This document shows positions 3 through 49,239 of a DNA stretch of 64,000 nucleotides, piece after piece. The stretch covers positions 36,933 to 100,932 of the forward strand of contig DATNEA010000047.1 of assembly GCA_035606845.1 (NCBI GenBank), in the 5' to 3' direction. The DNA is from Candidatus Angelobacter sp. Lineage in GTDB: Bacteria > Verrucomicrobiota > Verrucomicrobiia > Limisphaerales > DASXHY01. Each line of letters opens with the position of its first letter. Position 1 is the first letter of the stretch. The notes beneath the pieces are model-generated. The model saw nothing but the letters and a program-made list of their open reading frames with translations, was not told the DNA's origin and did no database searches. The translations under genes were made by a program, and so were the position numbers.

Positions 3-1253
3 CATGGCCCCGTGCGCGTGGCCCATACGTACCATTTCGATTACGCGGACGGCACACCTTACCGGGAACTCGGCACGACCTGCTACGTTTGGGAATGGCA
101 GCCGGAAGCGCTCCAGGAGGAGACGTTGAAGACCCTCGCATCATCGCCCTTCAACAAAATTCGCTTTTGCGTCTTCCCCAAGCACTACCAGTGGAACACC
201 AACGAGCCGATTCTCTATCCATTCGAAGGAGAGCCGCTGACACATTGGGATTTCACTCATTTCAACGTCAAATATTTCCAGCACCTCGACCAGAGCGTGC
301 TCGCACTACAGAAGCTTGGTATCCAGGCCGATGTCATTTTGTTCCATCCCTATGATGGAGGGCATTGGGGCTTCGATCGAATGCCGTCGGAAGTCGACGA
401 CCGGTATTTGCATTACGTGGTCGCGCGGCTCTCGGCCTATCGCAACGTCTGGTGGTCGCTCGCGAATGAATGGGATTTCATGAAGGAAAAAAAGGAATCG
501 GATTTTGTGCGCTTCGGCGAAATCATTTCGCACGACGACCCGTATCATCATCTGCTCTCGATTCATAACGGCTCCAAAATCTTCAATGACACGCTGCCAT
601 TTATTACGCACGCGAGCATCCAGAATGGTTCTGCCGTGGAAGATCCCGGTCGCGCGGAGCTGTATCGCGACGTTTACCGCAAGCCCGTCGTTTATGACGA
701 AGTGAAATACGAGGGGAATATCGACAGCCGCTGGGGCCAGCTTTCGCCGCAGGAAATGGTCTTCCGGTTTTGGAACGCCACTGTCGCGGGCACGTATTGC
801 GGCCATGGCGAAACTTACAAAAGCGATGACCAAGTTCTCTGGTGGTCCAAAGGCGGCGTGCTCAAAGGCCAAAGCCCGGCGCGGCTCGCGTTTCTGAAAA
901 AAATCCTCGCCGATTCGCCTCCCGAAGGCATCGATCCCATCGACAAATGGCAGGAACCCGAATACGGCGGCCAGCCCGGAAAATATTATTTGGTCTATCT
1001 CGGCAAACAAACGCCGAAAAGCTGGAAGTTTGAAATTCCCAAACCGCCGCTGGGCAGATTGCAATCCGCCGACGGCATGAAGTTCACCGTGGACGTGCTC
1101 GATACCTGGAACATGACCATCACTCCGGTGGACGGCGTGTTCACACTGAAAAAATTGGAAGGCGGCTATTTCTACGGTGATAAAGACGGGCGCTCCATTG
1201 CGCTGCCCGGAAGGCCCTACATGGCGATCCGGATCAAACGTTTGAACGATTAA
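3..1253 (+). CDS. Clan GH-A TIM-barrel glycosidase-like protein (DUF4038/DUF5605-type); 5' end lies outside the window
   Basis: The frame is open to the window edge (codons 3-11 have no stop). Motifs FCVFPKHY, LFHPYD and WWSLANEWD are present; the last carries the NE acid/base-type signature of clan GH-A. The C-terminal ~90 aa look beta-sandwich-like. The family is recalled from homologues, not searched. Confidence 0.6.
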   Translation, partial: HGPVRVAHTYHFDYADGTPYRELGTTCYVWEWQPEALQEETLKTLASSPFNKIRFCVFPKHYQWNTNEPILYPFEGEPLTHWDFTHFNVKYFQHLDQSVLALQKLGIQADVILFHPYDGGHWGFDRMPSEVDDRYLHYVVARLSAYRNVWWSLANEWDFMKEKKESDFVRFGEIISHDDPYHHLLSIHNGSKIFNDTLPFITHASIQNGSAVEDPGRAELYRDVYRKPVVYDEVKYEGNIDSRWGQLSPQEMVFRFWNATVAGTYCGHGETYKSDDQVLWWSKGGVLKGQSPARLAFLKKILADSPPEGIDPIDKWQEPEYGGQPGKYYLVYLGKQTPKSWKFEIPKPPLGRLQSADGMKFTVDVLDTWNMTITPVDGVFTLKKLEGGYFYGDKDGRSIALPGRPYMAIRIKRLND

Positions 1254-3929
1254 ATGAAATCATTCAGTCAAAAAATCGTCGTGGCGGCATTGCTCGCCGC
1301 CGGTTGCGTGTTCGCGCGCGCGGAAACTATCTCCATCGTCATCCCGACGAACGCCTCACCACGGGTGCAATTCGGCGCGCAGACGCTGGCCGGCACTCTC
1401 AATGTGGATCATCTCACCGCCGTGGTCACAAAGTCGCCCGATAAATCCACACGAGAAATCCATTTGGAAACGCCGCATGACAATTCCATCAAGCGCGAAG
1501 GTTTCCGTTTTGATCTGATGGGCAACAACGACGTCGTCATTACGTCGAGCGATGATTCCGGAACGCTTTATGGCTGTTTGGAATTGGCAAAACGGATTCG
1601 TGAATCTGGACAATACCCGCCCGCTGGAATCGCCAATTTTCAAGATGCTCCCGCCCTGACTCTCCGCGGCACGTGCGTTGGCATGCAAAAGACGTTCATT
1701 TTGCCCGGAAGAAAAGTTTACGAGTATCCCTACACGCCGGAATTGTTCCCCTGGTTCTACGACAAAAAACTTTGGACGGAGTATCTCGATTTTCTCGTGG
1801 AGAACCGCATGAACACGCTCTATCTCTGGAGCGGCCATCCGTTCGCTTCGCTCGTACGGCTCAAGGTATACCCCTACGCAGTCGAAGTGCCGGGCGACGT
1901 TTTCGCAAAAAACCAGGAACAATTCCGCTGGCTCGCGCAGGAATGCGACAAGCGCGGCATCTGGCTCGTGCAGATGTTCTACAACATTCTCGTTTCGAAA
2001 CCGTTCGCCGAAAAGAATCACATTTCGACGCAACTTTCCGCGCCGACGCCGCTCGTGGCCGATTATACGCGCAAATCCATCGCCGAATTCGTGAAGCAAT
2101 ATCCGAATGTCGGTCTCATGGTGTGCCTCGGCGAAGCGCTGCGTGGCACGAGCAATCAAGTCGCATGGGCGACACAGACAATTTTGCCCGGTGTAAAGGA
2201 CGGCATGAAAGCCGCGGGTTTGACAGAACAACCTCCCGTGGTCATCCGCACGCACGCGATGGATCCCTACGCGATCATGCCCGCTTGTTTCCAGGTCTAC
2301 TCCAATCTGTTCACGATCACGAAGTACAACGGCGAATCGCTGACCACCTGGAAGCCGCGCGGAAAAGACCAGGCCACGCATCTCGCCATGAGCAAGCTTG
2401 GGCCGCACCTCGTAAACATTCACATCCTTTCGAATCTCGAACCCTTCCGTTACGGCGACACGGAGTTCATCAAAAAGTCCGTGCAAGCGTCACGAGATCG
2501 GCTCGGCGCGAGCGGAGTCCATGTCTACCCCCTTTCTTATTGGAACTGGCCTTATTCGCCGGACATTGCCAATCCTCCGTTGCTGCAATGGCAGCGCGAC
2601 TGGATCTGGTTCGAAGCCTGGGCGCGATACTCGTGGAATCCGGACATTCCCGAACAACAGGATCACGCGTTTTGGATTTCGCAACTGGCCGATTATTACG
2701 GCAACACCAACGCCGCTGAGAAAATTCTTGAGGTCTACAATAATGCCGGCGAAGTTGCGCCGCGATTGGTTCGCCGCTTTGGCATCACGGAAGGCAATCG
2801 CCAGACCTTGTCGCTTGGCATGACTTTGGACCAGCTCGTGAACCCCCATAAATACGGGGCCATTGAGGACCTTTGGCTGTCGCAAGCGCCTCCCGGCGAG
2901 CGGCTGGATGAATACGTGAAAAAAGAATGGAACCACGAGCCGCACGTTGGCGAAACGCCGGAGAGCATCATCGCGGACGTGTTGACCTATTCGAGCAATG
3001 CCGTGGCCGCGGCGGATGCGGCGGAAACGCTCGTCACGAAAAACCGCGACGAGTTCGAGCGTTTGCGCAACGACGCTCGCTGCATTCAGGCGATGGCGTG
3101 GAATTACACCCACAAGGTGCGCGCCGCCGAATTGGTTTTGCGCTACGATTACAGCCACAACCTCCGCGACATGGAACAAGCCGGCAAACTCCTCGCCGAT
3201 AGCTTCACGGATTTCCAGCATCTGGACAATCTGACCAAAGCGACTTACCACTACGCGAACTCCATGCAAACCTCCCAACGGAAAATTCCGGTGAGCGGCG
3301 GCATGGGTGGCAAGCCGGCCTATTATCTCTGGTCGCAGATGGTGCCGCTTTATCAGCGCGAACTGGCGGATTTTCAAAGGAAGGTCGCCGATCTTCAAAT
3401 GAATAAGACCAACGTTGTCGACGAATTGAGCATCAAACCGTGGCCGGCAGCTCCGTTCAAATTGATTTCGATGAATGCGGAAACCTACAAAGTCGAAGTT
3501 GGCGCCAAAGTTTTCACCGATCGCAATTTTTCGATTCAAAGTCTCGCGCCGGAATTGAACGGTCTTACGGGAATTCGCATCTCACATGAGGCCGCCAAGA
3601 AAGGCCGTTATAAACCAATCGAATTTGAAGCTTCCGAACCGGTGGATGTGCTCGTGGGCTATTTCAAAAGCGACGAAAAAGTGTGGCTGCAGGTGCCGAA
3701 ACTGGAATTCGCCGCGCAGGCCGACGAGCGCGGCGGCATCGATACCGTGATTGAAAATGCGGCCACGATTTCCCAATGCCCCGCTCTGGATATCCACGCC
3801 TTTCGTTTCGACGCGGGCCGGCAAACGTTGGACCTCATCGGCAAAGGCAGTTTTGTCGTGCTCGGCATCGTGCCGCAATCAACCACCCTGACCCCGCGCG
3901 ATGCGCATCGCGGGAAAGGCGCGCCATGA
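1254..3929 (+). CDS. Secreted putative glycoside hydrolase, family unassigned (GH20/GH67/GH115-like N-terminal domain followed by a TIM-barrel-like core)
   Basis: The ATG directly follows the upstream TAA. Signal peptide MKSFSQKIVVAALLAAGCVFARA. The N-terminal segment ...DSGTLYGCLELAKRIRESG resembles the N-domain of alpha-glucuronidase/hexosaminidase-type enzymes. Its stop overlaps the next gene's start (ATGA). Confidence 0.45.
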   Translation: MKSFSQKIVVAALLAAGCVFARAETISIVIPTNASPRVQFGAQTLAGTLNVDHLTAVVTKSPDKSTREIHLETPHDNSIKREGFRFDLMGNNDVVITSSDDSGTLYGCLELAKRIRESGQYPPAGIANFQDAPALTLRGTCVGMQKTFILPGRKVYEYPYTPELFPWFYDKKLWTEYLDFLVENRMNTLYLWSGHPFASLVRLKVYPYAVEVPGDVFAKNQEQFRWLAQECDKRGIWLVQMFYNILVSKPFAEKNHISTQLSAPTPLVADYTRKSIAEFVKQYPNVGLMVCLGEALRGTSNQVAWATQTILPGVKDGMKAAGLTEQPPVVIRTHAMDPYAIMPACFQVYSNLFTITKYNGESLTTWKPRGKDQATHLAMSKLGPHLVNIHILSNLEPFRYGDTEFIKKSVQASRDRLGASGVHVYPLSYWNWPYSPDIANPPLLQWQRDWIWFEAWARYSWNPDIPEQQDHAFWISQLADYYGNTNAAEKILEVYNNAGEVAPRLVRRFGITEGNRQTLSLGMTLDQLVNPHKYGAIEDLWLSQAPPGERLDEYVKKEWNHEPHVGETPESIIADVLTYSSNAVAAADAAETLVTKNRDEFERLRNDARCIQAMAWNYTHKVRAAELVLRYDYSHNLRDMEQAGKLLADSFTDFQHLDNLTKATYHYANSMQTSQRKIPVSGGMGGKPAYYLWSQMVPLYQRELADFQRKVADLQMNKTNVVDELSIKPWPAAPFKLISMNAETYKVEVGAKVFTDRNFSIQSLAPELNGLTGIRISHEAAKKGRYKPIEFEASEPVDVLVGYFKSDEKVWLQVPKLEFAAQADERGGIDTVIENAATISQCPALDIHAFRFDAGRQTLDLIGKGSFVVLGIVPQSTTLTPRDAHRGKGAP

Positions 3930-5968
3930 AGCGCCGATTCCGGATCGCTGCCAAAATCTCGCTCTGTCTGGTCGCCGCCGGAATTTCATTTTCTCTCGTG
4001 GCGAAAGATGCGGGCCTTACGGACACCACTTCCAGCGCCTTTGCACAAATTCGTCCCGTTGGCCTCGATGAAGCCCATTGGACCACGGGATTCTGGGCGG
4101 ACCGCTTCGATTTGTGCCGCACGCAAATGGTCCCCAGCATGGCGCGCCTGATGGAAGGCACCAACTACTCGCAGTTCTTCTACAATTTCAAAATCACCGC
4201 CGGCCTCGCCAAAGGAAAATTCCACGGGGCCTCTTTTAACGACGGCGATTTTTACAAATTCCTCGAAGGCGCCAGCGCCACTCTCGCCGCGACCAACGAT
4301 GCGCCCTTGCGACAAGAGCTCGATGACATCATCGCCGTCATTGCCAAAGCACAGGAGACGAATGGATATATTGATACCTGGGTGCAGCTTCATCGGCGTG
4401 AGGGTGACACCGGCGCCGTGCCGTTCCGAAATCCGGATCATTTCGAAATGTATAATTTGGGCCATCTCATGACGGCAGCATGCGTGCATTATCGAGCCAC
4501 TGGTGAGACAAATTTTCTAACCATTGCATGCAAAGCGGCGGACTTTTTGTGCGACGCCTTCCAGAAACCCACGCCCGCGCTCGCCAACAATCTTGTGTGC
4601 CCATCGCATTACATGGGCATCGTGGAGTTGTACCGCGCCACGCATGAGCCGCGTTATCTGGAACTCGCAAAAAAACTTTTCTCGATGCGCGATCTCGTTA
4701 AGGACGGCGGCGACGATAACCAGGACCGCATCCCCTTCGCGCAACAAAACGAAGCCGAGGGCCACGCTGTCCGCGCCAATTATCTTTACGCCGGCGCGGC
4801 CGATTTGTTTTTGGAAACCGGCGACACCAATCTCTGGCGGCCGCTGACCGAAATCTGGACGAATGTCGTCACGAAAAAAATGTATATCACCGGCGGCTGT
4901 GGTGCGTTGTATGATGGCGCGTCGCCGGACGGCTCGCGCGATCAACGGCACATCACCCGCGTGCACCAAGCCTACGGGCGCAACTTTCAGTTGCCGAACA
5001 CGACGGCCTACAGCGAGACCTGCGCGAACATCGGCAACGTGTTGTGGAACTGGCGCATGTTTCTGGCCACGGGCAACGCGCAGTTCATGGATGTCGTCGA
5101 ACTCGCGCTTTACAACAGTGTCCTCGCCGGCGGCGCGCTCGACGGCACGAATTTCTTTTACACGAACCCGCTGCGCGTCACCGATCCGATGCCGACAGAC
5201 CTGCGTTGGTCGCGGGAACGCATTCCCTTCGTGAGTTCATTCTGCTGCCCACCCAACCTCCTGCGGACCATCGCCGAATCCGCCGATTACGCTTATGGAA
5301 AATCCGGCGATTCCATTTGGGTGAATCTTTACGGCGCCAGCTCGCTGGAAACCAAATTGCCGGACGGCGGTGAGGTCAGGCTCGTCCAGGAAACCGATTA
5401 TCCCTGGAATGGCCGCGTGCGAATCAAGATCGAAAAGTGTGGAACGAAGGAATTTGTTCTGAAGCTCCGGATTCCCGGCTGGGCCGACAGCGCCAGCATC
5501 CGTATCAATGACGCGCCCGCCGACGATTCCCCGCGTCCGGGCAGTTACTTCGAAATTCGCCGCCGCTGGCAGCCCGGAGATTTCGTTGACCTCGATTTGC
5601 CCATGCCGGTGCAGCTGATGGAAGCGAACCCACTCGTCGAAGATGATCTGAATCAAATCGCGATACAGCGCGGCCCAATCGTGTATTGCCTGGAATCGCC
5701 GGACCTGCCGCCGGGCGTCAAAATTTCCGAAGTGCGCATTCCGGCGGACATTCACCTGACGACACGTTACGACCGTCGGTTGCTCGACGGAGTTGTTGTC
5801 CTTGAAGGCAGGGCGCTCACTCAACCGCTAGGGGATTGGGATGAAAAACTGTATCGCGAATGGCATCCTGCTGAAATGAAACCGTTCAACGCCAAATTCA
5901 TCCCTTATTCCGTCTGGCAAAATCGCGGACGCTCGGAAATGTCCGTCTGGCTGCCACGAGTCGATTGA
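3926..5968 (+). CDS. GH127-family beta-L-arabinofuranosidase-like protein (DUF1680)
   Basis: Start chosen at ATG 3926 (ATGA overlap with the upstream stop; signal-like MKRRFRIAAKISLCLVAAG). The track ORF from 3776 is an upstream extension. Motifs GHAVRANYLY, YSETCANIGN and FCCPPN include the Cys-rich signature of GH127. Confidence 0.85.
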   Translation: MKRRFRIAAKISLCLVAAGISFSLVAKDAGLTDTTSSAFAQIRPVGLDEAHWTTGFWADRFDLCRTQMVPSMARLMEGTNYSQFFYNFKITAGLAKGKFHGASFNDGDFYKFLEGASATLAATNDAPLRQELDDIIAVIAKAQETNGYIDTWVQLHRREGDTGAVPFRNPDHFEMYNLGHLMTAACVHYRATGETNFLTIACKAADFLCDAFQKPTPALANNLVCPSHYMGIVELYRATHEPRYLELAKKLFSMRDLVKDGGDDNQDRIPFAQQNEAEGHAVRANYLYAGAADLFLETGDTNLWRPLTEIWTNVVTKKMYITGGCGALYDGASPDGSRDQRHITRVHQAYGRNFQLPNTTAYSETCANIGNVLWNWRMFLATGNAQFMDVVELALYNSVLAGGALDGTNFFYTNPLRVTDPMPTDLRWSRERIPFVSSFCCPPNLLRTIAESADYAYGKSGDSIWVNLYGASSLETKLPDGGEVRLVQETDYPWNGRVRIKIEKCGTKEFVLKLRIPGWADSASIRINDAPADDSPRPGSYFEIRRRWQPGDFVDLDLPMPVQLMEANPLVEDDLNQIAIQRGPIVYCLESPDLPPGVKISEVRIPADIHLTTRYDRRLLDGVVVLEGRALTQPLGDWDEKLYREWHPAEMKPFNAKFIPYSVWQNRGRSEMSVWLPRVD

Positions 5969-6053: not shown

Positions 6054-7046
6054 ATGCGTCGCCCTTTCGCAACACTTCGATTGAACCCGCTCAAGGTGCT
6101 CATTCTGAGTTTCGCCGCAGCACTACTTTTCTCAGGTTCCACGAGTCCAGCCGCCGCCGCGACAACGGACGATTCGGTTTACCTGTTCACCTCCTTCAGG
6201 AACGCGGACCAGAAATACCTCCGGTTTCTTTACAGCGATGACGGCTATCATTGGACGAACGTCCCGGGAACGTTTCTCGAGGCCAACGTCGGCGCCGCGA
6301 AACAGCTTCGCGACCCCAGCATCGCGCGCGGGCCCGATGGCGTGTTTCACCTCGTTTGGACCGCCGGCTGGCACGATGGCAAAGGTTTCGGTTATGCCAG
6401 TTCCACGGATCTCATCCACTGGTCCGACCAGAAATTTGTCGAAGTAATGACCAACGAACCGACGACCGTCAACGTCTGGGCGCCGGAAGTTTTTTACGAT
6501 TCCAAAGGCAAACAATTCATCATCGTCTGGGCCTCGACCATTCCCGGCCGCTTTCCCGATTTATTGGAGACTCACACCAACAATCATCGGCTCTATTTCA
6601 CGACCACCACCAATTTCAAAACGTTTGCGCCCACAAAATTATTCTTGGATCCGGGCTTCAGCGTGATTGACGCCTTCATTCTCCAGGACGGCGAACGTTA
6701 CGTTCTGGTCTGCAAGGATAATTCGCGGCCGGATTTGAACCTGCGCGTGGCCTTTTCGCAATCGCCAACCGGACCGTGGAAAAACGCGTCCAAACCGTTT
6801 ACCCGCAAATTCACCGAAGGCCCATGCGCCCTGAAAATCGGCGAGGACTGGATTATCTATTTTGATCCGTACCGTGAGAAACGCTACGGCGCAACGAAGA
6901 CCCGCGATTTCAAAGCCTTCACCGATATCACAGCAGAAATGTCCTTTCCCGAAGGCCATAAACACGGAACAGCGTTCCGCGTGCCGCGGAAAATTCTGGA
7001 CGGACTGCTGAAAAGCCACGCCGCAATTTCCCAAACAAATCCATGA
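6054..7046 (+). CDS. GH43-like five-bladed beta-propeller glycoside hydrolase
   Basis: Signal peptide present. Motifs LRDPSIARGPDG, WAPEVFYD and a repeated blade pattern are present. Stop overlaps the next start (ATGA at 7043-7046). Confidence 0.7.
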   Translation: MRRPFATLRLNPLKVLILSFAAALLFSGSTSPAAAATTDDSVYLFTSFRNADQKYLRFLYSDDGYHWTNVPGTFLEANVGAAKQLRDPSIARGPDGVFHLVWTAGWHDGKGFGYASSTDLIHWSDQKFVEVMTNEPTTVNVWAPEVFYDSKGKQFIIVWASTIPGRFPDLLETHTNNHRLYFTTTTNFKTFAPTKLFLDPGFSVIDAFILQDGERYVLVCKDNSRPDLNLRVAFSQSPTGPWKNASKPFTRKFTEGPCALKIGEDWIIYFDPYREKRYGATKTRDFKAFTDITAEMSFPEGHKHGTAFRVPRKILDGLLKSHAAISQTNP

Positions 7047-29855: not shown

Positions 29856-29929
29856 ACCACGAAGCAGCCTTCGATTTCTTCTCCGCATTTCATTGGCTAT
29901 GTTCGGCGAGAGGCGCTGGAGCAAGTTCT

Positions 29930-29966: not shown

Positions 29967-29991
29967 TTTTGGCGAGCAGAGTTTCACGACT

Positions 29992-36350: not shown

Positions 36351-36445
36351 TATATTCGCGCAACCTTGTTTTTGCCGTCGCCGATGCCCATAATTCCCGC
36401 ATGGTCCGCCACAATCAAGAAACCGTGTTCGCATCGGTTTCCGCC

Positions 36446-40419: not shown

Positions 40420-40599
40420 ATCATTCCGGCATGCGCCCATGCGCCGCAGGGGACGTAAGAAAAACGTTCTCAGATGAACATCCGATATGATAGAATGCCC
40501 GAATCCGTTCTAATCGAAAATCATACCGCACCCGAAGTAAACATGAATCGTTTTGACGCGAACCCCCGCAACTGTCCGACAACTCCCCCCAAACGCACG

Positions 40600-43500
40600 A
40601 TGAACACCCCAATAAAACCCGCAATCGCTTGGTTTCTAGCCGCGATAATGGCCCTGGCAACCGGCGCGCAGGGACAAACCACCGCCAACTGGATCGGACC
40701 CGCCGCCGGCGGCGAATGGAACACCGGCGCAAACTGGGACACCGGTTTCCCCCCGCTGGACGCCACCACGAATGCCTACATCGGCAGCGGCTCGAACGTC
40801 AATTACAGCTTGCCGATGGCCGCCTCCAGTTTCGGCACCCTCACGCTCGACGGGGTTCTGAACGTAAACGCAAGCGGGTTTAACAGCAGCGGGATAAGCA
40901 TGATCCATCCTGGCGGCGGCAGCGCCTTGTTTATCAATAATTCCGGCGTGGTAAACCTAAGCGGGGATCTGGCGATTAGCTCGAATGCCGCCGTCAGTAT
41001 TGCCACTGGAGGCGCCTTCACCACCACCGCCACCTTGCGAGTTGGCTCCGGCAGCACCGCCGGCTCCGGTGGCTTCATGACCAATTATGGCGGCAACATT
41101 ACCGCGACCACCACGACCATCAATAACAACAACGCCAGCGCCAGTTCAGCTCTGGTCATTTCCGGCGGCACGAACAACCTCGGCGACGTCACCATCAACC
41201 GGGCCGGCCCCAGCAAACAGCCCGCGCTCGGGACCGAAGGTTTGATCGTCTCCAATGGCATCGTGAATGTCACCAGCCTCACCGTCGGCGGTTCTTCCGC
41301 CAATTCCTTTTTGTCGATGTACATGGCCGGCGGAATTGTCACCAACAGCGGCGCAATGACCGTTCACCTCAGCAGCACATCCGGCCGGCCGGCCCGGTTC
41401 CTGCAAACCGGCGGTCTGGCCGTCACGATGGAACCGAACGTCGTCACGATGAATCCGCAAGGCACCTCGGCCGGCGTTACCACCGTTTATGCCATCCTGG
41501 GCGGCACCAATTACGCCGGTGGATTTCAATTCGGCGACGTGGCGGGAGCCAACCTTGGCACCGCCAATTTCACGAACGCCGCCGCGATTTATGTGGGCAG
41601 CGAGGGCATGAATTCCAACGGCGCCGTCAATCTGAACGCGATGCTGAACAATGGCGGCCTTTTCGGCGCGTCCGCGGATTGGACCGGCAATGCGGGAATG
41701 GTCCTGAACGGCGGCACGTTTACCTTCCAGGCCGCGGCCGAGGACGGAACCGCGCACAACATCCTGCTAAATGGGATTCTAAGCGGACCCGGCGGCCTGG
41801 TTAAAACCGGCGCTGGCACCCTGACGATGGACGCTTCCAACACCTATGCGGGCATCACTTATGTCAAAGAGGGCACGCTTGCGCTGGGGTCCAATGACGT
41901 TTCCGGCTCGGTCGGCTCCCTCGCCAGTGAGTCCGTCATCGTCGGTTCCGGCACTATTTTCGATGTTTCGCAGGCAGGTTACTCGGTTCAACCACTCCAA
42001 ATTCTTGGCGGTTTTGGTTCGGTGAGTGGTGCAGTGACGGTCGCACCCAATGGCGTCATTAATCCGGGCAGCAATAACATCACAGGCGCTCTCAGTTTCA
42101 ACAATGATGTCATTGAAACGAACGGGGCCGTAAACCATTTCGATATTCCCGGCGACGTGATTAATATCACCGGCTCTCTGACCGCCAGCGGCGTCAATAC
42201 GATGGATGTTTCCGGCAGTGTGCCCCCCGGCACCGCGTATGCCCTGGTTCATTATGGCACCTTCAATGGCGACGTCAGCAATTTCGCCGTCACCGGCGCC
42301 ACCGGCGTTCTGTCCAACAGCGTCACCGACAAAACCATCTATCTGATCGTCTCCTCCAGCCTCCGGGCCAACACGAATCTCACCTGGGTGGGCAACAGCA
42401 CCAACAATGTCTGGGACACGCACAACTCCACCAACTGGGTGGACAGTGGCTCCAGCACGCCCGATTTCTTCCTTTCGGGCGACAACGCGCGCTTTGACGA
42501 TTCCGCCGCCAATAACACGAACGTAACCATTCCCGATTTTGTCAGCCCTGCTTCCGTCGTCGTGGATAGCACTCTGAATTATGTATTCACTGGCGACGGC
42601 AGCATCAGCGGCCAGACAGCCACTCTCACGAAGACCAATTCGGGCACACTGACCATACTCACCACCAACACCTACGCGGGCGCCACCACACTGGGCGGCG
42701 GGGTTTTGGAAATTCTCTCGATCACGAACAGTTCCATCCCCAGCCCCATCGGCGCTGCCACCTCCGACCCCGGTTCCCTGGTCTTCAACGGCGGCACGTT
42801 GCGTTATTCCGGCGACATTGCCAGCACGGACCGCGGCGCCACGTTCAACACCAACGCCATTATCGACGTGACCAACAGCGCCACAACCCTGACGCTTAAC
42901 GGCACCATGACCGGTGTGGGCGGATTGACCAAACTCGGCGCGGGCGAATTGAGCCTGGCCGGCCTCAACGGCTATCTCGGCGCAACCACACTCAGCAACG
43001 GCGTCCTGACCGTGAACGCCGTTTCGGCCATCAGTCCCAATACCATCAATTATGCCGGCGGCACCTTGAACCTCGCCAGCGCCAGCAGCCAGCAATTCTA
43101 CGGCAACCTGAACAACGTCGTTACGACGGGCACCATTGTTCAGAACGGCGCAAATGCCAACTCCATCCTCAGCGGCGGCTGGACCGGCGACGGCACCATT
43201 AACATCGATATTCAGGATAGCGGCGGCACGCTCTCACTGAACCACGATATCACCTCCAACTTCGGCGGCACGATGCGCCTGACCGACGCCAGCACCGGCA
43301 CGCTCCGCTTCAACAGCGGCGGAAATGCCACCAGCGCCCAGCAATGCACCGGCAGTCCCACGGTGACGTTTGACCTCGGCAACGGCTCGGCTTCGCTCAT
43401 CAATCGCAACGGTGGCGGTACCAGCTTCGGCAATTACGACCTCGGCGCTCTCATGGGCGGCCCGGGCACCTTCCTCAAAGGCAGCGCCAACAATGGCAGC

Positions 43501-44400
43501 CTCAGCACTTACTTCATCGGAGCCAAAAACCTCGACACCGCCTTCGCCGGCACCATCGCCGACGGCAACAGCGGACCGACCGCCATTGCGAAAGTCGGCG
43601 CCGGCACGCTCACGCTCACTGGCAACAACACCTACACCGGTTCGACCATCGTCAGCAACGGCGTCCTCGCCCTGGGCGACGGCACCACGGATGGTTTCAT
43701 CAGCAGCAGCACGAACATCGATATCGAAGCAGGCGCGGTGCTCGATGTTTCCAAGCTCAGCGGCGGCACGCTCTTCCTCGGGAGCCAGACCATTCAAGGC
43801 AATGGCACGTTGAACGGCAGCCTCAGCGATAATAGCGGCATCGTGGCGCCCGGCGGCGGCATCTACGGCGGCATCGGCACGCTCACCGTCACGAACACCA
43901 CTGCACTGTTCAACGAGACCTGGATGAAGCTCGACCGCACCGCCGCGCAAAATAGCGACCGGCTGGTTTCCCCGAGCATCAGCCTCAATGGCAGCACGCT
44001 GATCGTGACCAACATCGGCCCGAGCTTAAAACCTGGCGACACCTTCACCCTGTTCAGCGGCACATTGTCCGGCGCCTTTGGCAACGTTATTCTGCCGAAC
44101 TACTACACGTGGGACACCAACCAACTCGCCCTGAATGGCACCATCCGCGTGGTCTCCTTCAATCCGCCCGGGCTGGGCATGGACTTCAGCCAGTTTTCCA
44201 GCGGCGTCATTACCTTCAACGCCACCAATGGCTTGCAAGGCGGCGCGGTCTCGGTGCTCTCCACCACCAATCTCTCGCTGCCCGTCAGCCAATGGACCAA
44301 CGTCGTAAGCGGCTTCTTTGATGGCTTCGGCAATTTCACGTCGCCCGTCACGGTCGATCCGACCGTGCCGACGCAGTTCTTTATATTGTCGGTGCAGTGA
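40600..44400 (+). CDS. Giant secreted protein with autotransporter-associated beta-strand (PATR) repeats
   Basis: Signal peptide MNTPIKPAIAWFLAAIMALATGAQG. Many GAGTLT(L/M)xxxNTYxGxTxVxxGxL units are present. No C-terminal beta-barrel-like domain is evident. A rho-independent terminator follows. Confidence 0.8.
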   Translation: MNTPIKPAIAWFLAAIMALATGAQGQTTANWIGPAAGGEWNTGANWDTGFPPLDATTNAYIGSGSNVNYSLPMAASSFGTLTLDGVLNVNASGFNSSGISMIHPGGGSALFINNSGVVNLSGDLAISSNAAVSIATGGAFTTTATLRVGSGSTAGSGGFMTNYGGNITATTTTINNNNASASSALVISGGTNNLGDVTINRAGPSKQPALGTEGLIVSNGIVNVTSLTVGGSSANSFLSMYMAGGIVTNSGAMTVHLSSTSGRPARFLQTGGLAVTMEPNVVTMNPQGTSAGVTTVYAILGGTNYAGGFQFGDVAGANLGTANFTNAAAIYVGSEGMNSNGAVNLNAMLNNGGLFGASADWTGNAGMVLNGGTFTFQAAAEDGTAHNILLNGILSGPGGLVKTGAGTLTMDASNTYAGITYVKEGTLALGSNDVSGSVGSLASESVIVGSGTIFDVSQAGYSVQPLQILGGFGSVSGAVTVAPNGVINPGSNNITGALSFNNDVIETNGAVNHFDIPGDVINITGSLTASGVNTMDVSGSVPPGTAYALVHYGTFNGDVSNFAVTGATGVLSNSVTDKTIYLIVSSSLRANTNLTWVGNSTNNVWDTHNSTNWVDSGSSTPDFFLSGDNARFDDSAANNTNVTIPDFVSPASVVVDSTLNYVFTGDGSISGQTATLTKTNSGTLTILTTNTYAGATTLGGGVLEILSITNSSIPSPIGAATSDPGSLVFNGGTLRYSGDIASTDRGATFNTNAIIDVTNSATTLTLNGTMTGVGGLTKLGAGELSLAGLNGYLGATTLSNGVLTVNAVSAISPNTINYAGGTLNLASASSQQFYGNLNNVVTTGTIVQNGANANSILSGGWTGDGTINIDIQDSGGTLSLNHDITSNFGGTMRLTDASTGTLRFNSGGNATSAQQCTGSPTVTFDLGNGSASLINRNGGGTSFGNYDLGALMGGPGTFLKGSANNGSLSTYFIGAKNLDTAFAGTIADGNSGPTAIAKVGAGTLTLTGNNTYTGSTIVSNGVLALGDGTTDGFISSSTNIDIEAGAVLDVSKLSGGTLFLGSQTIQGNGTLNGSLSDNSGIVAPGGGIYGGIGTLTVTNTTALFNETWMKLDRTAAQNSDRLVSPSISLNGSTLIVTNIGPSLKPGDTFTLFSGTLSGAFGNVILPNYYTWDTNQLALNGTIRVVSFNPPGLGMDFSQFSSGVITFNATNGLQGGAVSVLSTTNLSLPVSQWTNVVSGFFDGFGNFTSPVTVDPTVPTQFFILSVQ

Positions 44401-44446: not shown

Positions 44447-44646
44447 GTTCCCGCGCATGAAATCTGCGGTGATATGCATGTTGAACAGGATTCACATCAC
44501 CGGAGGAACGGATGCTTCCCCCGGCCACCGACCTTATTACGTCCAATCCATATTGGCGCAGAAGCAATAATCGCACTGGCACGAAACCTAATGCAATGGC
44601 TTCAGTTGACCCACCGTGTGTGCCATGGCTTATGACGATCCGCCCA

Positions 44647-46791
44647 ATGGTTAACTTCAACAAAATCCAAACACTTTCATTCGCGACTTTAATTCTGGCT
44701 TGCGCCCTGTCGGCCAGCGCCGCTCCGATCGATCGCCACGCGCTTGTCATTCGGCACAACGTCGAATTGGGCCAGTTCGATGCGAACAACCCGCTCACCG
44801 TCGGCAATGGCGAATTCGCCTTCACCGTCGATGCCACCGGTCTCCAAACATTTGCCAAAACATTTGAGCATACGATTCCGCTCGGCACGCTCTCGGACTG
44901 GGGCTGGCATACCTTTCCGAACCCCAGCGGCTGGAGCATCGACACCTTCCATTTCAAAACCTACACCAACCTCGATGGCCGCCCCGTTCCCTACGCCGAT
45001 GTTCCGCACAATCAGCAAACGCCCGAAATCAAATGGCTGCGCGCCAATCCGCACCGCCTCGATCTGGGCCAAATCGGGTTCGTGCTCAAAAAAGCCGGCG
45101 GTTCGCTCGCCCAAACCAACGATTTATCCAACATTTCGCAAACACTCGACCTGTGGAACGGCGAAATCATCAGCCACTTTGAATTTGCTAATCAGCCCGT
45201 CGACGTCCAAACCCTTTGCACGCCGGACATCGATGCCATCGCCGTCCGCGTGCAATCGCCGCTGCTGAAATCCGGCCAACTCGCCATCCAAATCCATTTT
45301 CCCTACGGCACCGGCGATACCATCACCGCCGATTGGTCTCATCCCGACGCGCACGAAACCATCGCCACCCAACCCGCCCCCAACCAGGCCCTCTTCGCGC
45401 GCAAGCTGGACAACGACACCTATTCCGCCCTCGCCAATTGGACCTCTGGCGCCACGCTCACCAACATCGCCAGGCATCAATACGAAATCGTTCCAAACAA
45501 AACCTCCGATACGCTCGAACTCGTCTGCGCATTTTCGCCCACGAACTTTGCCACGCCCGTTCTTCCTTCCTTCGCGCAAGCCAAAGAGTCTGCGCAGAAA
45601 AATTGGAATCATTTCTGGCAAACCGGCGGCGCGATTGACTTGTCCGGCAGCAAGGACCCGCGCTGGTTCGAATTGGAGCGCCGGATTGTTTTGTCGCAAT
45701 ACCTGACCGCCATCCAGGACGCCGGCAAAAACCCACCGCAGGAAACCGGCCTCACCTACAACACGTGGGAAGGCAAATTCCACCTCGAAATGCATTTCTG
45801 GCACGAAGCGCATTTCGCGTTGTGGGACCGCCTGCCGCTCCTCGAGAAAAGTTTGGATTACTACATCCGCATCCTCCCGCGCGCCGAAGGCACCGCCCGC
45901 AAGCAAGGCTACGCCGGCGCGCGCTGGCCCAAGATGACCAGCCCCAGCGGCGCCGAATCGCCCTCGCCCGTCGGCCCGTTCCTCGTCTGGCAGGAGCCGC
46001 ACCCGATTTTTTACGCGGAACTTTGTTACCGCGCTCACCACGACCGGGCCACGCTGGAAAAATTCAAGGACGTCGTCTTTCAAACCGCAAATTTCATGGC
46101 CAGCTATGCGGCCTGGGACAAAAAAACCAAACGCTACGTCCTCGGCCCGATACTGCAATGCGCGCAGGAAATTTTTCCCAAAGACAAAACCTTCAATCCA
46201 ACGTTCGAGCTGACCTATTGGCGCTGGGGCTTGGAGACCGCTCAAACCTGGCGCACTCGCCTCGGCCTTCCGCGCGAAGAAACCTGGGACAACGTTCTCC
46301 GCCATCTCGCCAAGCCGCCCGTTGGCGACGGAAAATATCTTTTCACCGAAACCACGCCCGATTGTTACACCAACCCGAAGTGGAACAAAGATCATCCCGC
46401 CGTCGTCGGCGCCTTGAGCTTTGTGCCCGGTCCCGGAATTGATCACCAAACCATGCGCAATACCTTCGATTGGATTTGGGATAACTGGAATTGGCCGGAC
46501 ACGTGGGGTTGGGATTATCCGATGCTCGCCATGACCGCCGCCCGCCTCGGCGATCCGGCTCGCGCCGTTGACACCCTTCTGCTCGACACGCCCAAAAATC
46601 ACTACGCCATAAACGGCCACGTTTATCAGCGCCCCGGCCTGACGCTCTATCTCCCCGCCAATGGCGGCTTGCTTTATGCGACCGCCCTCATGGCTGCCGG
46701 CTGGGACGGCGCCCCGTCAAGAAACGCCCCCGGCTTCCCCGACAACGGCCAATGGACCGTCCGCTGGGAAAATCTAAAACGCGCCCCATGA
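44647..46791 (+). CDS. Secreted putative (alpha/alpha)6-type glycoside hydrolase, family unassigned
   Basis: Signal peptide from ATG 44647. N-terminal IDRHALVIRHNVELGQFDANNPLTVGNGEFAFTVDATGLQTF. The C-terminal half is helical and W-rich (WQEPHPIFYAELCYR, TYWRWGLETAQTW). Confidence 0.35.
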   Translation: MVNFNKIQTLSFATLILACALSASAAPIDRHALVIRHNVELGQFDANNPLTVGNGEFAFTVDATGLQTFAKTFEHTIPLGTLSDWGWHTFPNPSGWSIDTFHFKTYTNLDGRPVPYADVPHNQQTPEIKWLRANPHRLDLGQIGFVLKKAGGSLAQTNDLSNISQTLDLWNGEIISHFEFANQPVDVQTLCTPDIDAIAVRVQSPLLKSGQLAIQIHFPYGTGDTITADWSHPDAHETIATQPAPNQALFARKLDNDTYSALANWTSGATLTNIARHQYEIVPNKTSDTLELVCAFSPTNFATPVLPSFAQAKESAQKNWNHFWQTGGAIDLSGSKDPRWFELERRIVLSQYLTAIQDAGKNPPQETGLTYNTWEGKFHLEMHFWHEAHFALWDRLPLLEKSLDYYIRILPRAEGTARKQGYAGARWPKMTSPSGAESPSPVGPFLVWQEPHPIFYAELCYRAHHDRATLEKFKDVVFQTANFMASYAAWDKKTKRYVLGPILQCAQEIFPKDKTFNPTFELTYWRWGLETAQTWRTRLGLPREETWDNVLRHLAKPPVGDGKYLFTETTPDCYTNPKWNKDHPAVVGALSFVPGPGIDHQTMRNTFDWIWDNWNWPDTWGWDYPMLAMTAARLGDPARAVDTLLLDTPKNHYAINGHVYQRPGLTLYLPANGGLLYATALMAAGWDGAPSRNAPGFPDNGQWTVRWENLKRAP

Positions 46792-46926: not shown

Positions 46927-48069
46927 ATGTGTAACTCCTCAACGCAACCTCACGTCCGTCCAACTGTGAAACTTCTCACTCTCGTCACCTTCGCCGTCCT
47001 CGCTTCGTCGCAGCTTATCTTCGCCGCGGAAAAACCCCTCGCCTTTCCCGGCGCCGAAGGCTTCGGCCAATTCGCCACCGGCGGCCGCGGCGGCCAAACC
47101 ATCCACGTCACCACGCTCGACGATTCCGGCCCCGGCTCATTCCGCGACGCCGTCAGCAAACCCAATCGCACCATCATTTTCGACGTCAGCGGCACCATCC
47201 ATCTGAAATCAAATGTTGCCGTCAGCAGCGACCTTACGCTCGACGGCAAATCCGCGCCGGGCGAAGGCATCACGCTCTACGGCCGTTCCGTCTCCTTCAG
47301 TGGCGAAAAAAATGTCATCGTGCGCTACCTGCGCTTCCGCGAAGGCATCGCCGGCGACAGGGGCAAGTGCTCGGTGAATCTTTCCAACGGCGGCGATATG
47401 ATTTTCGATCATTGCAGCATCGAATGGGGACGCTGGGATTGTCTCGGCCTCACGCGCGGCAGTCACGATATCACCTTTCAGTATTGCATCATCGGCGAAG
47501 GCATCGACCCGCAACGCTTCGGTTCGCTCTCCGATACCATCACAAACATCACCTACACTCACAATCTCTGGATCAACAACCAAAGCCGCAATCCCAAGGC
47601 GAAGGGTCATATTCAATACATCAACAACGTGGTCTACAACTGGGGCGTCTGCGGCCTCGTCGGCGGCCATTCCGAAGCTGATCATTTTCTGGATGCCATC
47701 GGCAATTATTTCATCGCCGGCCCCAACTCCAATTCACGCGCCACCGGCGAATTCAAGGCCACCGATCACGTCTTCCAAAGAGACAATCTCGTTGATTTAA
47801 ACAAAGATGGAAAACTCGACGGCCAGCCGCTGACCCCGGGCAATTTCGGCACTGGCGAAAACGCTCCCACTTTTTCCAAAGAGCTCACCGTCGCCCCGCT
47901 CACGAACGTCACGGTCGAAACCGCCCCCGCCGCTCTCTCCAACGTCCTCGCCCAGGCCGGCTGCTCGCTCCATCGCGACCTAGTCGACACCCGCCTGATC
48001 GACGCCGTCAAATCCTTCGGCAAAACCGGCCAAATCATCCACAGCGAAACCGAGGCGAAACTTCCTTAA
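46927..48069 (+). CDS. PL1 pectate lyase
   Basis: Signal peptide present. Motifs AFPGAEGFGQFATGGRGGQTIHVTTL, MIFDHCSIEWG and NQSRNPKAKG (the vWiDH and RxPxxR-type motifs of PL1). ATG 46927 chosen (TTG 46912 is possible). Confidence 0.8.
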   Translation: MCNSSTQPHVRPTVKLLTLVTFAVLASSQLIFAAEKPLAFPGAEGFGQFATGGRGGQTIHVTTLDDSGPGSFRDAVSKPNRTIIFDVSGTIHLKSNVAVSSDLTLDGKSAPGEGITLYGRSVSFSGEKNVIVRYLRFREGIAGDRGKCSVNLSNGGDMIFDHCSIEWGRWDCLGLTRGSHDITFQYCIIGEGIDPQRFGSLSDTITNITYTHNLWINNQSRNPKAKGHIQYINNVVYNWGVCGLVGGHSEADHFLDAIGNYFIAGPNSNSRATGEFKATDHVFQRDNLVDLNKDGKLDGQPLTPGNFGTGENAPTFSKELTVAPLTNVTVETAPAALSNVLAQAGCSLHRDLVDTRLIDAVKSFGKTGQIIHSETEAKLP

Positions 48070-48162: not shown

Positions 48163-49239
48163 TCACTTCACAACTGGCAACTCATCCGTCTTCTTCTCGC
48201 GCCGGGGCTTCAGATCAATATAAGTCGGCTGATTCGGATTCGTATACATCAGCTTTCCATCAATCACCTTCAACTCGACGACATTGATCGAAATACCATG
48301 GCGCGGACGAGCACCGGAGTCGCCCGCCTCCGCAGGCGCGGCAGCCGGGGCATTGGTGGAAGGAATCACCGCCCAATGAATATTCCCGATCCGTTGCCCG
48401 CCAAAATAAAACCACCACGCCCGCCCGCCGCTGACCACCACATCACCGTGGCTGCCATAAAGCGTGCTGTCCTGCGGCGTCCAATGCGTGCAATCATCCG
48501 AGGACCAGATCGCCTGGCCCTCCGGCCGGTCCGTGTCGGCGAGCAGCCAGTATTTTCCGCCGAAACGGAAACACGCCGGACCTTCGCCGTTTCGATCCGT
48601 CACCGCGTTGCCCTTCACGTCCCAATGATAAAGATCGGTGCTGTCCGCGTAACAAATCGTGCGCCGCCTTGCCTCGTCCTTGTAGAACATGCGCCAGACG
48701 CCATTGGTCATTCGAAAAATGGCCGGATCAATCACCTTTTCCGAATGGAGATCCACTTTCCCAACCGTGTCCCACTTGACGCCGTCCCGGCTCGTGAGAT
48801 GCGCAATCTCCCGTGGATGCCCCCAATCGCTGAAAATTCCCGGCACGAACGCGAGAAACATGTGGTATTTGCCGTAGGCCCATAAAACCTCCGGCGCCCA
48901 ATACGTGTAATTCGTCGGGCACCGATCCTGCCCGTATGTGATATCCGCCGTGCCCATATATTTCCACGTCGCGCCGCCATCTTCCGAAGTCGCCATGCCG
49001 ATCTTTGTTCCATGAATCAGCGGAATGCCGTCGCCGCGACGTTGGGTGTAATACATGAACCACTTTTTCGCTTCCGGCTCATAAACAATGACCGGATCGG
49101 TCGGATGATCAAAAACCGGGTCGCGATAAAGCGGCCGGGCGGCAATTTTGCCCGCCGGATGAGTTTGGATATCCGACGCCTGCGCCGAAACCAACCCCGC
49201 GCAAACGCAAGCCAGGAACACTTGGGAAATGATTTTCAT
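48163..49239 (-). CDS. GH43/GH32-superfamily five-bladed beta-propeller glycoside hydrolase
   Basis: Signal peptide present. Motifs FDHPTDPVIV, YWAPEVLWAYGKYHMF and VIDPAIFRMTNGVWRMFY are present. Confidence 0.6.
   Translation of the reverse strand: MKIISQVFLACVCAGLVSAQASDIQTHPAGKIAARPLYRDPVFDHPTDPVIVYEPEAKKWFMYYTQRRGDGIPLIHGTKIGMATSEDGGATWKYMGTADITYGQDRCPTNYTYWAPEVLWAYGKYHMFLAFVPGIFSDWGHPREIAHLTSRDGVKWDTVGKVDLHSEKVIDPAIFRMTNGVWRMFYKDEARRRTICYADSTDLYHWDVKGNAVTDRNGEGPACFRFGGKYWLLADTDRPEGQAIWSSDDCTHWTPQDSTLYGSHGDVVVSGGRAWWFYFGGQRIGNIHWAVIPSTNAPAAAPAEAGDSGARPRHGISINVVELKVIDGKLMYTNPNQPTYIDLKPRREKKTDELPVVK

Follow-up and report, generated by a model that had tools for sequence, protein, structure and literature searches.

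How could a locus serve the breakdown of a glycan as elaborate as rhamnogalacturonan II (RG-II) without the proteins on which the known pathway depends? The biochemistry of RG-II breakdown has been worked out only for gut Bacteroides, which depend on import through SusC/SusD. The question is raised by a 64,000-nucleotide stretch (the window) of contig DATNEA010000047.1, assembly GCA_035606845.1, whose positions 3-49239 hold a locus of carbohydrate-active enzymes (CAZymes) with neither SusC nor SusD. A reading made from the sequence alone had described this ~49-kb locus and proposed that it targets RG-II and pectin. We studied it with a six-frame listing of open reading frames (ORFs) and with Pfam, NCBIfam and PDB sequence searches, on which the assignments in Table 1 are based (positions are in window numbering), and compared 80 related loci from GTDB species representatives; other loci and contigs are denoted by L and a number. 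In our judgement, these 49 kb are probably the right-hand part of a larger chromosomal cluster of CAZyme genes, at least 68 kb long and dedicated to dismantling RG-II and the homogalacturonan and rhamnogalacturonan I (RG-I) that surround it.

The locus is a compact array of 27 genes, 23 of them on the + strand. With corrected starts they cover 0.95 of the region; 4-bp overlaps occur between five pairs of neighbours, and gaps reach 309 bp at most. A signal peptide is predicted for twenty products, called by eye and with a hydropathy script from a basic stretch, a hydrophobic stretch and an AxA-like site; GH31, PhyH, the 278-aa protein and the AraC regulator have none. The tight packing and the figure of about 20 exported enzymes proposed from the sequence alone are thus borne out, and every family named there was recovered, including the second DUF3826 protein on the minus strand; a PhyH dioxygenase, the 278-aa protein and a 1285-aa PATR protein were not in that list. 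If glycoside hydrolases (GH) and polysaccharide lyases (PL) make up at most 5% of genes, which is our assumption, the occurrence by chance of at least 15 of them among 27 consecutive genes is vanishingly unlikely. Two gene models were revised. The PL22-like gene is present and encodes 434 aa, but does not take in the whole of a long ORF from 27723: the 5' 828 bases of that ORF (27723-28550, +) have no domain and were rejected as coding because they are antisense to the second DUF3826 gene. The AraC gene encodes 279 aa and not the 461 aa of its ORF, whose N-terminal 182 codons, also without a domain, were rejected. ORF 9885-10424 was rejected as a gene as well.

The left edge of the window cuts the locus inside the GH140 gene. 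The upstream region is visible on an ENA soil-metagenome contig (ERZ27256653, k141_273001; 114,912 bp) that is identical to the left part of the window. The cluster continues there for at least 18.7 kb, and since this part holds further GH and PL genes, the whole measures at least 68 kb. The right-hand boundary, after the end of the GH159-like gene at 49239, is sharp: it is followed by a tRNA-Arg, glycosyltransferases, a pterin-binding enzyme, a methyltransferase, cytochrome oxidase subunits and a UbiA-family prenyltransferase, and in the 14.8 kb beyond the locus on this side the Pfam search found no GH or PL gene. One may ask whether an assembly or binning artefact, or the chance juxtaposition of unrelated CAZyme genes, could have produced such a cluster, given its metagenomic source, the conflicting taxonomic labels and a break between two ENA contigs at about position 11507, inside GH31. 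We find this scarcely credible. Both contigs match the window exactly on either side of the break, and gene calls on the second (k141_513590), which covers the right part, agree with ours (L082). GH140-GH138-GH127-GH43-DUF3826, AraC-PhyH-GH31-GPH, GH78-BNR_2 and kinase-regulator-PATR-759-aa protein each recur in many independent assemblies, and the high coding fraction and overlapping stop and start codons also speak against it. The window bridges the two contigs, the first of which ends inside GH31, and therefore derives from another assembly of this population that is more contiguous.

The case for RG-II is carried by a few enzymes with narrow known substrates. Over residues 12-874, the GH138 protein matches BPa0997 (6HZE/6HZF) with an E-value of 1e-235 in the PDB sequence search, and it keeps both the CLGEA motif and the residue equivalent to E361, which is mutated in 6HZG (E361S). 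It had been counted among three large unassigned glycosidases; of the others, that at 44512-46791 still has no family and that at 32977-36267 belongs to the DUF4450 family. The GH127 protein is a clear member of its family (Pfam catalytic, middle and C-terminal domains, 1.5e-107) and spans positions 2-656 of the 657 in the aceric-acid-hydrolase model NF049879. The GH137 homologue, which stands alone and is not fused to GH2, matches 5MT2/5MUI/5MUJ (E 6e-87), which we take to be the N-terminal domain of BT0996, and positions 15-353, the N-terminal part, of NF049877 (1.5e-113). The N-terminus of BT0996 of Bacteroides thetaiotaomicron is GH137, and the sole substrates known for BT1003-type GH127, GH138 and GH137 are, respectively, aceric acid, the alpha-galacturonic acid (GalA) linkage of chain A and the beta-L-arabinofuranose (Araf) linkage of chain B (review PMC13501991). 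The GH137 protein had been taken for one of several GH43-superfamily propellers, of which one is indeed GH43-like (6054-7046) and another is GH159-like. The full GH140 gene encodes 528 aa, starting 334 bp to the left of the window, which adds DUF5060 and a signal peptide (L001/L164); its ORF matched no NCBIfam model. Finally, this organism has a GH141 gene (GH141_M and Beta_helix; L164 903-2570) at 16-18 kb upstream of the window, and a relative (L002) has one as well. The hidden Markov model (HMM) and PDB searches moved none of the key ORFs to another family, a shift that would have spoken against the pectin/RG-II reading, and GH140, GH138, GH137, the putative aceric-type GH127 and the upstream GH141 strengthen it.

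Less specific parts of the locus point in the same direction. The GH78 and BNR_2 genes share 4 bp. When 1.8 billion representative proteins were searched with HMMER, many BNR_2 homologues came up, and GH78-BNR_2 fusions make up five of the eight long ones examined. In B. thetaiotaomicron, BT1013 combines GH78 with a sialidase fold, and its two halves remove rhamnose (Rha) and 3-deoxy-D-manno-oct-2-ulosonic acid (Kdo) from chain C (PMC13501991). The BNR_2 protein, which in the PDB matched only GH33 sialidases, and weakly, is thus a putative hydrolase of Kdo or 3-deoxy-D-lyxo-hept-2-ulosaric acid (Dha), and we infer that the coupled pair acts like BT1013 on Rha-Kdo. The RG-II methylesterase BT1017 has DUF3826, present twice here, at its C-terminus, and BT1022 consists of this domain throughout; the domain showed no binding to RG-II in vitro (PMC7939467). 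One BNR_2 homologue (P0270) is a triple fusion of GH78, BNR_2 and AP_endonuc_2 (a xylose-isomerase-like TIM barrel), and an AP_endonuc_2 protein with a signal peptide occurs in the PL1-DUF3826 block of Bacteroidia (L045 13261-14142). We know of no role in pectin breakdown for an exported TIM-barrel protein of the AP_endonuc_2 type.

Several observations weigh against this reading. By the standard of B. thetaiotaomicron the pathway is incomplete, as the 83 kb that we examined (-18.7 kb to +64 kb in window numbering) yielded no GH139, GH142/143, GH28, GH105 or carbohydrate esterase family 19 (CE19). For GH139, neither large unassigned protein matches 9HYQ or 9HMB by sequence, and the Foldseek match of the 714-759-aa protein, obtained with a low-confidence model, is weak (5e-5, TM 0.2). 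For GH142/143, no window protein, the BNR_2 protein included, matched a BT1020-like chain in the PDB copy searched, in which the BT1020 structure is presumably present. For CE19, the serine esterase showed no similarity to the BT1017 structure in the PDB sequence search. A GH88/105 gene does adjoin the locus in one relative (L083). The GH138, GH127 and GH106 proteins all score under the NCBIfam equivalog cut-offs, with 1071 bits over the full length of NF049878 against 1300, 936.2 against 950, and 840 bits over the full length of the BT4145 model NF049897 against 1300, respectively. GH106, the DUF4450 protein and, weakly, GH2 are nearer to RG-I-type proteins of B. thetaiotaomicron, and GH29, GH31 and GH159 are outside the known RG-II apparatus. 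Moreover, a single verrucomicrobial protein from an RG-II-specific family has been tested so far, the Verrucomicrobium sp. GAS474 GH139, and it has no catalytic acid and was inactive on RG-II (PMC12282258).

The low scores, the extra families, the missing GH139, GH142 and GH143 and the inactive verrucomicrobial GH139, which according to the same text probably has another ligand, would all fit a different target. This could be a glycan that shares sugars with RG-II, such as apiogalacturonan, another apiose-, rhamnose- or fucose-rich plant or algal polymer, arabinogalactan-protein or a microbial exopolysaccharide, and the RG-II-family enzymes would have diverged in specificity. We think this unlikely. 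The GH138 and GH137 types found here and the probable GH127 type have only RG-II substrates known, they co-occur with GH140, GH141, GH95, GH78 plus BNR_2, PL1 and DUF3826, and the E361 equivalent of GH138 is kept. GH137 and GH138 also belong to a genome co-occurrence module (GH137/138/139/141/142/143) which PMC7922503 attributes to RG-II and reports mainly from Bacteroidetes, and also from five Acidobacteria. We therefore retain RG-II as the probable target, and include the neighbouring pectin because of the resemblance of GH106, DUF4450 and, weakly, GH2 to RG-I-type proteins. The unassigned proteins may substitute for the missing families, the DUF4450, DUF6298, 759-aa and MGH1-like proteins being the candidate replacements, or the missing genes may lie elsewhere.

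The cluster is not a peculiarity of one contig. Its blocks recur in dozens of contigs of Verrucomicrobiota and Planctomycetota. The block PL1-MFS-aldolase-GH-DUF6298-GH140-GH138, which joins the upstream region to the window, is kept in Verrucomicrobiota, and parts of it occur in Phycisphaerae, Pirellulales and Gemmataceae beside GH127, GH137, GH138, GH78 and the 759-aa family. From the far end towards the window, the upstream genes encode GH78 (-), GH141 (-), a prepilin-like N_methyl protein, a 1228-aa protein without a domain, a 758-aa protein whose PL1 domain is PelZ-like, a 561-aa PL1 paralogue, a transporter of the D-galactonate/anion:cation symporter (ACS) type within the major facilitator superfamily (MFS), a protein of the NanA/DapA/2-keto-3-deoxygluconate (KDG)-aldolase family, an MGH1-like (alpha/alpha)6 GH, a 1031-aa DUF6298 protein and GH140, which runs into the window. 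Together with the one in the window, this makes three PL1 proteins.

We found no Plug, TonB_dep_Rec or SusD domain among the 27 genes or anywhere in the 83 kb around the locus, that is, in the 18.7 kb upstream, in the window or in its 15 kb downstream of the locus. A TonB-dependent receptor close by, which would have undone the transporter-less aspect, is thus not present in the 18.7 kb upstream of the window, and none was found in about 60 loci of the Planctomycetes-Verrucomicrobia-Chlamydiae (PVC) group. In Bacteroidia relatives, SusC and SusD directly precede the PL1-DUF3826-DUF6298 block (L045), and a tblastn search with this pair matched only Bacteroidia loci. Because the Bacteroidia have the pair and the PVC loci do not, we regard its absence as a feature of the lineage and not of a single locus.

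How breakdown would proceed can be sketched from homology to the B. thetaiotaomicron enzymes, following the pathway in PMC13501991, most of which is matched by the families present. The PL1 lyases would cut the galacturonan backbone and the PL22-like protein, a putative oligogalacturonide lyase, would finish the oligogalacturonides. Chain A would be handled by GH95, GH138 and the upstream GH141; chain B by GH137, the aceric-acid-type GH127, GH2, GH78 and GH106; and the Rha-Kdo of chain C by the coupled GH78 and BNR_2. The apiose stubs that chains A and B leave would fall to GH140, arabinofuranose to the GH43-like and GH159-like propellers, and ester groups to the serine esterase. Since the debranching enzymes are predicted to be exported, these steps would take place outside the cytoplasm, in the periplasm or at the cell surface. 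MFS-type carriers would then bring small products across the inner membrane. The propeller-sensor kinase and its NarL-type regulator probably control expression, with AraC in charge of the cytoplasmic module described below.

The outer membrane would be crossed without a locus-encoded SusC/SusD pair, and the 83 kb encode no recognisable route across it. One alternative is that RG-II enters the periplasm largely intact and is degraded there, in the "selfish" mode of Bacteroides, by an outer-membrane route other than SusC/SusD. Such a route could be a TonB-dependent receptor whose gene lies elsewhere, or the locus-linked PATR and pseudopilin-like proteins. Every debranching enzyme has a predicted Sec or Tat signal, the periplasmic sensor propeller resembles the hybrid two-component systems of Bacteroides, some freshwater Verrucomicrobia have TonB-receptor loci for pectin (PMC5615132), and PATR and N_methyl genes recur beside the locus. 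Against this stand the lack of a TonB-dependent receptor both in the 83 kb here and in the PVC loci and the inner-membrane carriers present, which are of the mono- or disaccharide type. We see intact import as possible, if somewhat unlikely.

PATR paralogues, often flanked by one or two N_methyl genes, recur near the sensor kinase and the PL1 block in several relatives (sites in Table 1), and the PATR protein of the window is rich in G, T, S and N on inspection; no beta-barrel domain was found in it. Together, the PATR giants and the N_methyl proteins could form a SusC/SusD-independent surface apparatus that captures RG-II fragments and passes them to the periplasm. It would be a PVC-specific import route for very complex glycans, if true, but we consider it quite improbable. 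PATR and prepilin-like genes form very abundant paralogue families in these phyla, and their adjacency to the locus is for this reason weak evidence.

The sequence-only reading named a symporter of the glycoside-pentoside-hexuronide (GPH) family as the sole transporter. This is right within the window, but an ACS-type MFS transporter lies about 5.8-7.1 kb upstream of it, beside the NanA/DapA/KDG-family aldolase. The two look like an uptake-and-cleavage pair for a 3-deoxy-ulosonic acid, and Kdo, Dha or similar keto-deoxy acid sugars would be their substrates. This pair sits between the PL1 lyases and the MGH1-like GH and is kept in nearly all verrucomicrobial relatives.

The GPH symporter itself belongs to a cytoplasmic module of the 278-aa protein, AraC, PhyH, in some cases GH31, and GPH (7701-13834) that we found in more than 30 soil-metagenome contigs (L094-L163), often between GH138/GH127/GH43/DUF3826 and BNR_2/GH78; the 278-aa protein adjoins AraC and PhyH in about 28 contigs. 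With the cytoplasmic GH31, PhyH and 278-aa proteins, the symporter would take up a glycoside that is finished inside the cell. The best NCBIfam model for GH31 is the YicI-type alpha-xylosidase NF007940 (252 bits, well below the cut-off), and PhyH has 255 relatives in metagenome contigs and weak matches to NCBIfam hydroxylases. The module may process methylated or rare RG-II sugars. B. thetaiotaomicron cleaves all RG-II linkages but one, and is not known to cut 2-O-methyl-xylose-fucose; the module may import and cleave this disaccharide, with PhyH as a sugar O-demethylase, although we consider this too quite improbable. We had considered the 278-aa protein as a xylose-isomerase-like TIM barrel and dropped the idea, as it has no similarity to AP_endonuc_2 or to Pfam or NCBIfam models. 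In some relatives, the module is interrupted by genes of sugar-acid catabolism: an RraA-like aldolase, an enolase-superfamily dehydratase, an altronate-dehydratase-like protein, a short-chain dehydrogenase/reductase (SDR), a Gfo/Idh/MocA oxidoreductase and a DUF1537-type kinase. On the 940-kb contig of one relative (L083 18623-22136), genes for a RuBisCO-like protein, a sugar-acid kinase of the DUF1537 type, a protein resembling Asp/Glu racemases and an SBF transporter adjoin the homologous locus, and in another (L099) kinase, racemase and SBF genes stand beside AraC-PhyH. The pairing of a RuBisCO-like protein with a DUF1537 kinase is typical of apiose catabolic gene sets.

The regulators are as described before: in addition to AraC, Pfam identifies a propeller kinase (Reg_prop/Y_Y_Y/HisKA_3/HATPase) and a LuxR-type regulator (REC plus GerE), which are separate genes and not a hybrid two-component system. 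Kinase, response regulator, PATR and a 711-aa homologue of the 714-759-aa protein follow in the same order in L083, with two N_methyl genes between PATR and the homologue.

Among the other glycan enzymes, the GH43-like propeller is a putative alpha-L-arabinofuranosidase (NF052546, 1.6e-21, below the cut-off). GH2 exceeds the 900-bit cut-off of the GalB model NF041463, with 1138 bits, and resembles BT4151/BT4156 weakly. In Pfam, the GH159-like protein has weak matches to BNR_2 and GH43. The PDB sequence search gave no match for the DUF4450, 759-aa and upstream DUF6298 proteins. More than 3000 homologues of the DUF4450 protein exist, none functionally named; some homologues of the 714-759-aa protein are named PGGHG-like and one has PF14498. 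We modelled the 714-aa and DUF4450 proteins with AlphaFold2, in both cases with 30-sequence alignments that lack diversity because the retrieved homologues are all 68-84% identical, and both models have a pLDDT of 52. The Foldseek matches were GH94/65/63/116 and 4E0E (BT_4147), at a TM of about 0.3, for the DUF4450 protein, and GH65/GH95 at the top for the 714-759-aa protein; they suggest a beta-sandwich plus (alpha/alpha)6 architecture only, without assigning a family. The first is thus a putative beta-sandwich and (alpha/alpha)6 glycosidase, and the second a putative (alpha/alpha)6 glycosidase like GH65, GH95 or GH139; both labels are weakly founded because the models are of low confidence, and call for caution. 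An hhalign comparison of the 714-aa family with the GH95 of the window gave nothing significant (probability 2%).

The RG-II polysaccharide utilization loci (PULs) of B. thetaiotaomicron, reportedly described by Ndeh et al. in 2017, share much with this cluster. Common to both are GH140, GH138, GH137, GH127 (here putatively aceric-type), GH141 (here upstream), GH95, GH78, GH106 and GH2 (PMC13501991, PMC12282258, bioRxiv 10.64898/2026.03.13.711244), as well as a GH78 and sialidase-fold pair, PL1, DUF3826, an esterase, the export (here predicted) of all these enzymes and a periplasmic Reg_prop/Y_Y_Y sensor. Beyond the lack of SusC/SusD and of the families listed above, the differences are the split HisKA_3 kinase and NarL-type regulator in place of a hybrid system, the separate genes for what are fusions in BT0996 and BT1013, and the additional GH29, GH31 with GPH, PhyH, GH159-like, PL22-like, PATR, DUF4450 and DUF6298 proteins. 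The Flavobacterium johnsoniae-type RG-II PUL resembles the locus in some respects (bioRxiv 10.64898/2026.03.13.711244): its genes are nearly all on one strand, it has an AraC-like regulator instead of a hybrid system, and its main locus lacks some of the B. thetaiotaomicron families. Since it belongs to Bacteroidota, we would expect it to carry SusC/SusD, unlike the locus here. The TonB-dependent carbohydrate utilization loci (CUT) of Xanthomonas and some Verrucomicrobia (PMC5615132) combine a TonB-dependent receptor with GHs and inner-membrane transporters, whereas here GHs and MFS transporters stand without one between -18.7 kb and +64 kb.

Smaller parts of the cluster have parallels too. 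A BT4145-type GH106 stands beside a DUF4450-family protein (BT_4147, PDB 4E0E) in the BT4145-BT4147 region of B. thetaiotaomicron as well, but here the pair is embedded among RG-II genes; BT4145 and BT4147 presumably belong to an RG-I PUL. The yicI-yicJ genes of Escherichia coli encode a GH31 alpha-xylosidase and a GPH symporter. The cytoplasmic GH31 here likewise adjoins a GPH-family symporter, but the two are joined to AraC, PhyH and the conserved 278-aa protein.

RG-II families outside Bacteroidota are already on record. Beside the Acidobacteria mentioned above, an Opitutaceae genome announcement lists GH138, GH140 and GH143, and in a screen of 22,053 CAZy genomes (bioRxiv 2026 preprint) no phylum but Bacteroidota had complete RG-II degradomes, while the genomes short of one or two RG-II families included one "Verrucomicrobia sp.". 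In their accessible parts, these reports give family counts or a single protein and do not describe gene order, the absence of transporters, regulators or conservation in PVC bacteria. The present locus adds one co-oriented cluster of at least 68 kb conserved across Verrucomicrobiota and Planctomycetota, the consistent absence of SusC/SusD/TonB where Bacteroidia have them, the split sensor, and the cytoplasmic and PATR/pseudopilin modules.

The host is most likely an uncultured soil bacterium of Verrucomicrobiota subdivision 3 (Limisphaerales/Pedosphaerales). The nearest homologues, 72-86% identical, come overwhelmingly from metagenome-assembled genomes (MAGs) labelled Verrucomicrobiia, Verrucomicrobia subdivision 3 or Limisphaerales, and the PATR repeats and prepilin-like genes fit Verrucomicrobiota. 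A MAG with a PL1 protein (P0393) identical to the upstream PL1 has the NCBI label "Candidatus Angelobacter sp." (Acidobacteriota), and several other soil MAGs of the same catalogue that carry the same block are labelled Acidobacteria; the acidobacterial label is probably a labelling or binning problem of this catalogue.

A few features of the window stand apart. The tRNA-Arg(TCT) gene lies 245 bp past the last CAZyme gene, where the glycan locus gives way to housekeeping and glycosyltransferase genes. Just right of the locus, at 50055-53204 (-), two Glyco_trans_1_2 genes and a short GT4-like ORF of 195 aa with nothing but the N-terminal domain, all unrelated to the cluster, may form a small locus for surface-polysaccharide synthesis. 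Rfam places an Acido-Lenti-1 RNA motif (RF01687; 39.5 bits, threshold 37, E 2e-5) in the 189-bp spacer between PhyH and GH31, at 10335-10380, on the strand opposite to both genes (-); at gathering level, the motif is absent from seven related loci.

Table 1. Genes of the locus at window positions 3-49239, its right-hand boundary, and sites of giant PATR proteins in related loci.
Feature	Position	Strand	Evidence
GH140 apiosidase-like, C-terminal 416 aa	3..1253	+	Pfam Apiosidase 3e-15, DUF5605 2.8e-21
GH138 alpha-D-galacturonidase homologue, 891 aa, signal peptide	1254..3929	+	PDB 6HZE/6HZF, NF049878
GH127, putatively of aceric-acid-hydrolase (BT1003) type, 680 aa, signal peptide	3926..5968	+	Pfam, NF049879
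GH43-superfamily five-bladed propeller, 330 aa, signal peptide	6054..7046	+	BT_3657-like_N 8e-12, weak Glyco_hydro_43
DUF3826 protein a, 208 aa, signal peptide	7043..7669	+	Pfam DUF3826 4e-48
Conserved 278-aa cytoplasmic protein, no family	7701..8537	+	no Pfam/NCBIfam match
AraC-family regulator, 279 aa from internal Met	8534..9373	-	HTH_18 1e-18, AraC_binding 9e-10
PhyH-family Fe(II)/2-oxoglutarate dioxygenase, 273 aa	9446..10267	+	Pfam PhyH 2e-22
GH31 alpha-xylosidase/alpha-glucosidase-like, 667 aa	10457..12460	+	Pfam GH31 TIM barrel 3e-82
GPH/MFS_2 glycoside-cation symporter, 455 aa	12467..13834	+	Pfam MFS_2 9e-85
GH78 alpha-L-rhamnosidase, 1068 aa, signal peptide	14083..17289	+	five Pfam GH78 domains 3e-110; NF041573 877 bits
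BNR_2 sialidase-fold hydrolase, 381 aa, signal peptide	17286..18431	+	Pfam BNR_2 3.9e-89
GH95 (alpha-L-fucosidase/alpha-L-galactosidase family), signal peptide	18395..20758	+	Pfam catalytic domain 9.5e-164
Alpha/beta-hydrolase serine esterase, 406 aa, signal peptide	20766..21986	+	Pfam BD-FAE 6e-8; GFSRGSG motif
GH137 beta-L-arabinofuranosidase homologue, 385 aa, signal peptide	21990..23147	+	PDB 5MT2/5MUI/5MUJ, NF049877
GH29 alpha-L-fucosidase, 523 aa, RR (Tat-like) signal	23291..24862	-	Pfam Alpha_L_fucos 3e-80; L082 gene call
GH2 beta-galactosidase, GalB type, 867 aa, signal peptide	25035..27638	+	Pfam GH2; NF041463 1138 bits
DUF3826 protein b, 243 aa, signal peptide	27666..28397	-	Pfam DUF3826 3.3e-48; L082 gene call
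PL22-like seven-bladed propeller, 434 aa, signal peptide	28551..29855	+	Pectate_lyase22 1.6e-12; PDB 3C5M/3PE7 4e-11
GH106 alpha-L-rhamnosidase, BT4145-like, 922 aa, signal peptide	29899..32667	+	Pfam GH106 5.7e-55; NF049897
DUF4450-family protein, 1096 aa, signal peptide	32977..36267	+	Pfam DUF4450 5e-36
Sensor histidine kinase: periplasmic Reg_prop/Y_Y_Y propeller, HisKA_3, HATPase_c	36401..39595	+	Pfam; L082 gene call
LuxR/NarL-type response regulator	39790..40419	+	Response_reg 2.6e-26, GerE 1.5e-18
PATR beta-strand-repeat protein (giant), 1285 aa, signal peptide	40543..44400	+	Pfam PATR 3e-19, TIGR02601
714-759-aa protein, signal peptide, no CAZy family	44512..46791	+	weak Pfam GH65m match
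PL1 pectate lyase, 380 aa, signal peptide	46927..48069	+	Pectate_lyase_4 3e-6; NF041900 PelZ-like 3.8e-28
GH159-like five-bladed propeller, 358 aa, signal peptide, last CAZyme gene	48163..49239	-	PDB 7ZEI Ch_Gaf159A 4.5e-55
tRNA-Arg(TCT), right-hand boundary	49484..49560	+	ARAGORN, Rfam
Giant PATR/beta-strand-repeat site	L164 2925-7566		
Giant PATR/beta-strand-repeat site	L083 4387-9943		
Giant PATR/beta-strand-repeat sites	L002, L007, L026 upstream regions		

By itself the locus reveals no new mechanism, and it is better seen as a useful comparison case than as a new kind of system. Soil is the main site of plant cell wall recycling, and Verrucomicrobiota and Planctomycetota are abundant there. 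If our assignment is right, the locus presents the RG-II enzyme set of these phyla as one conserved cluster without the import machinery of Bacteroidota. It also names candidates for the downstream steps, in the acid-sugar transporter with its aldolase and in the PhyH/GH31/GPH module, and its gene list can be used for testing how such bacteria handle the most complex plant glycan known.

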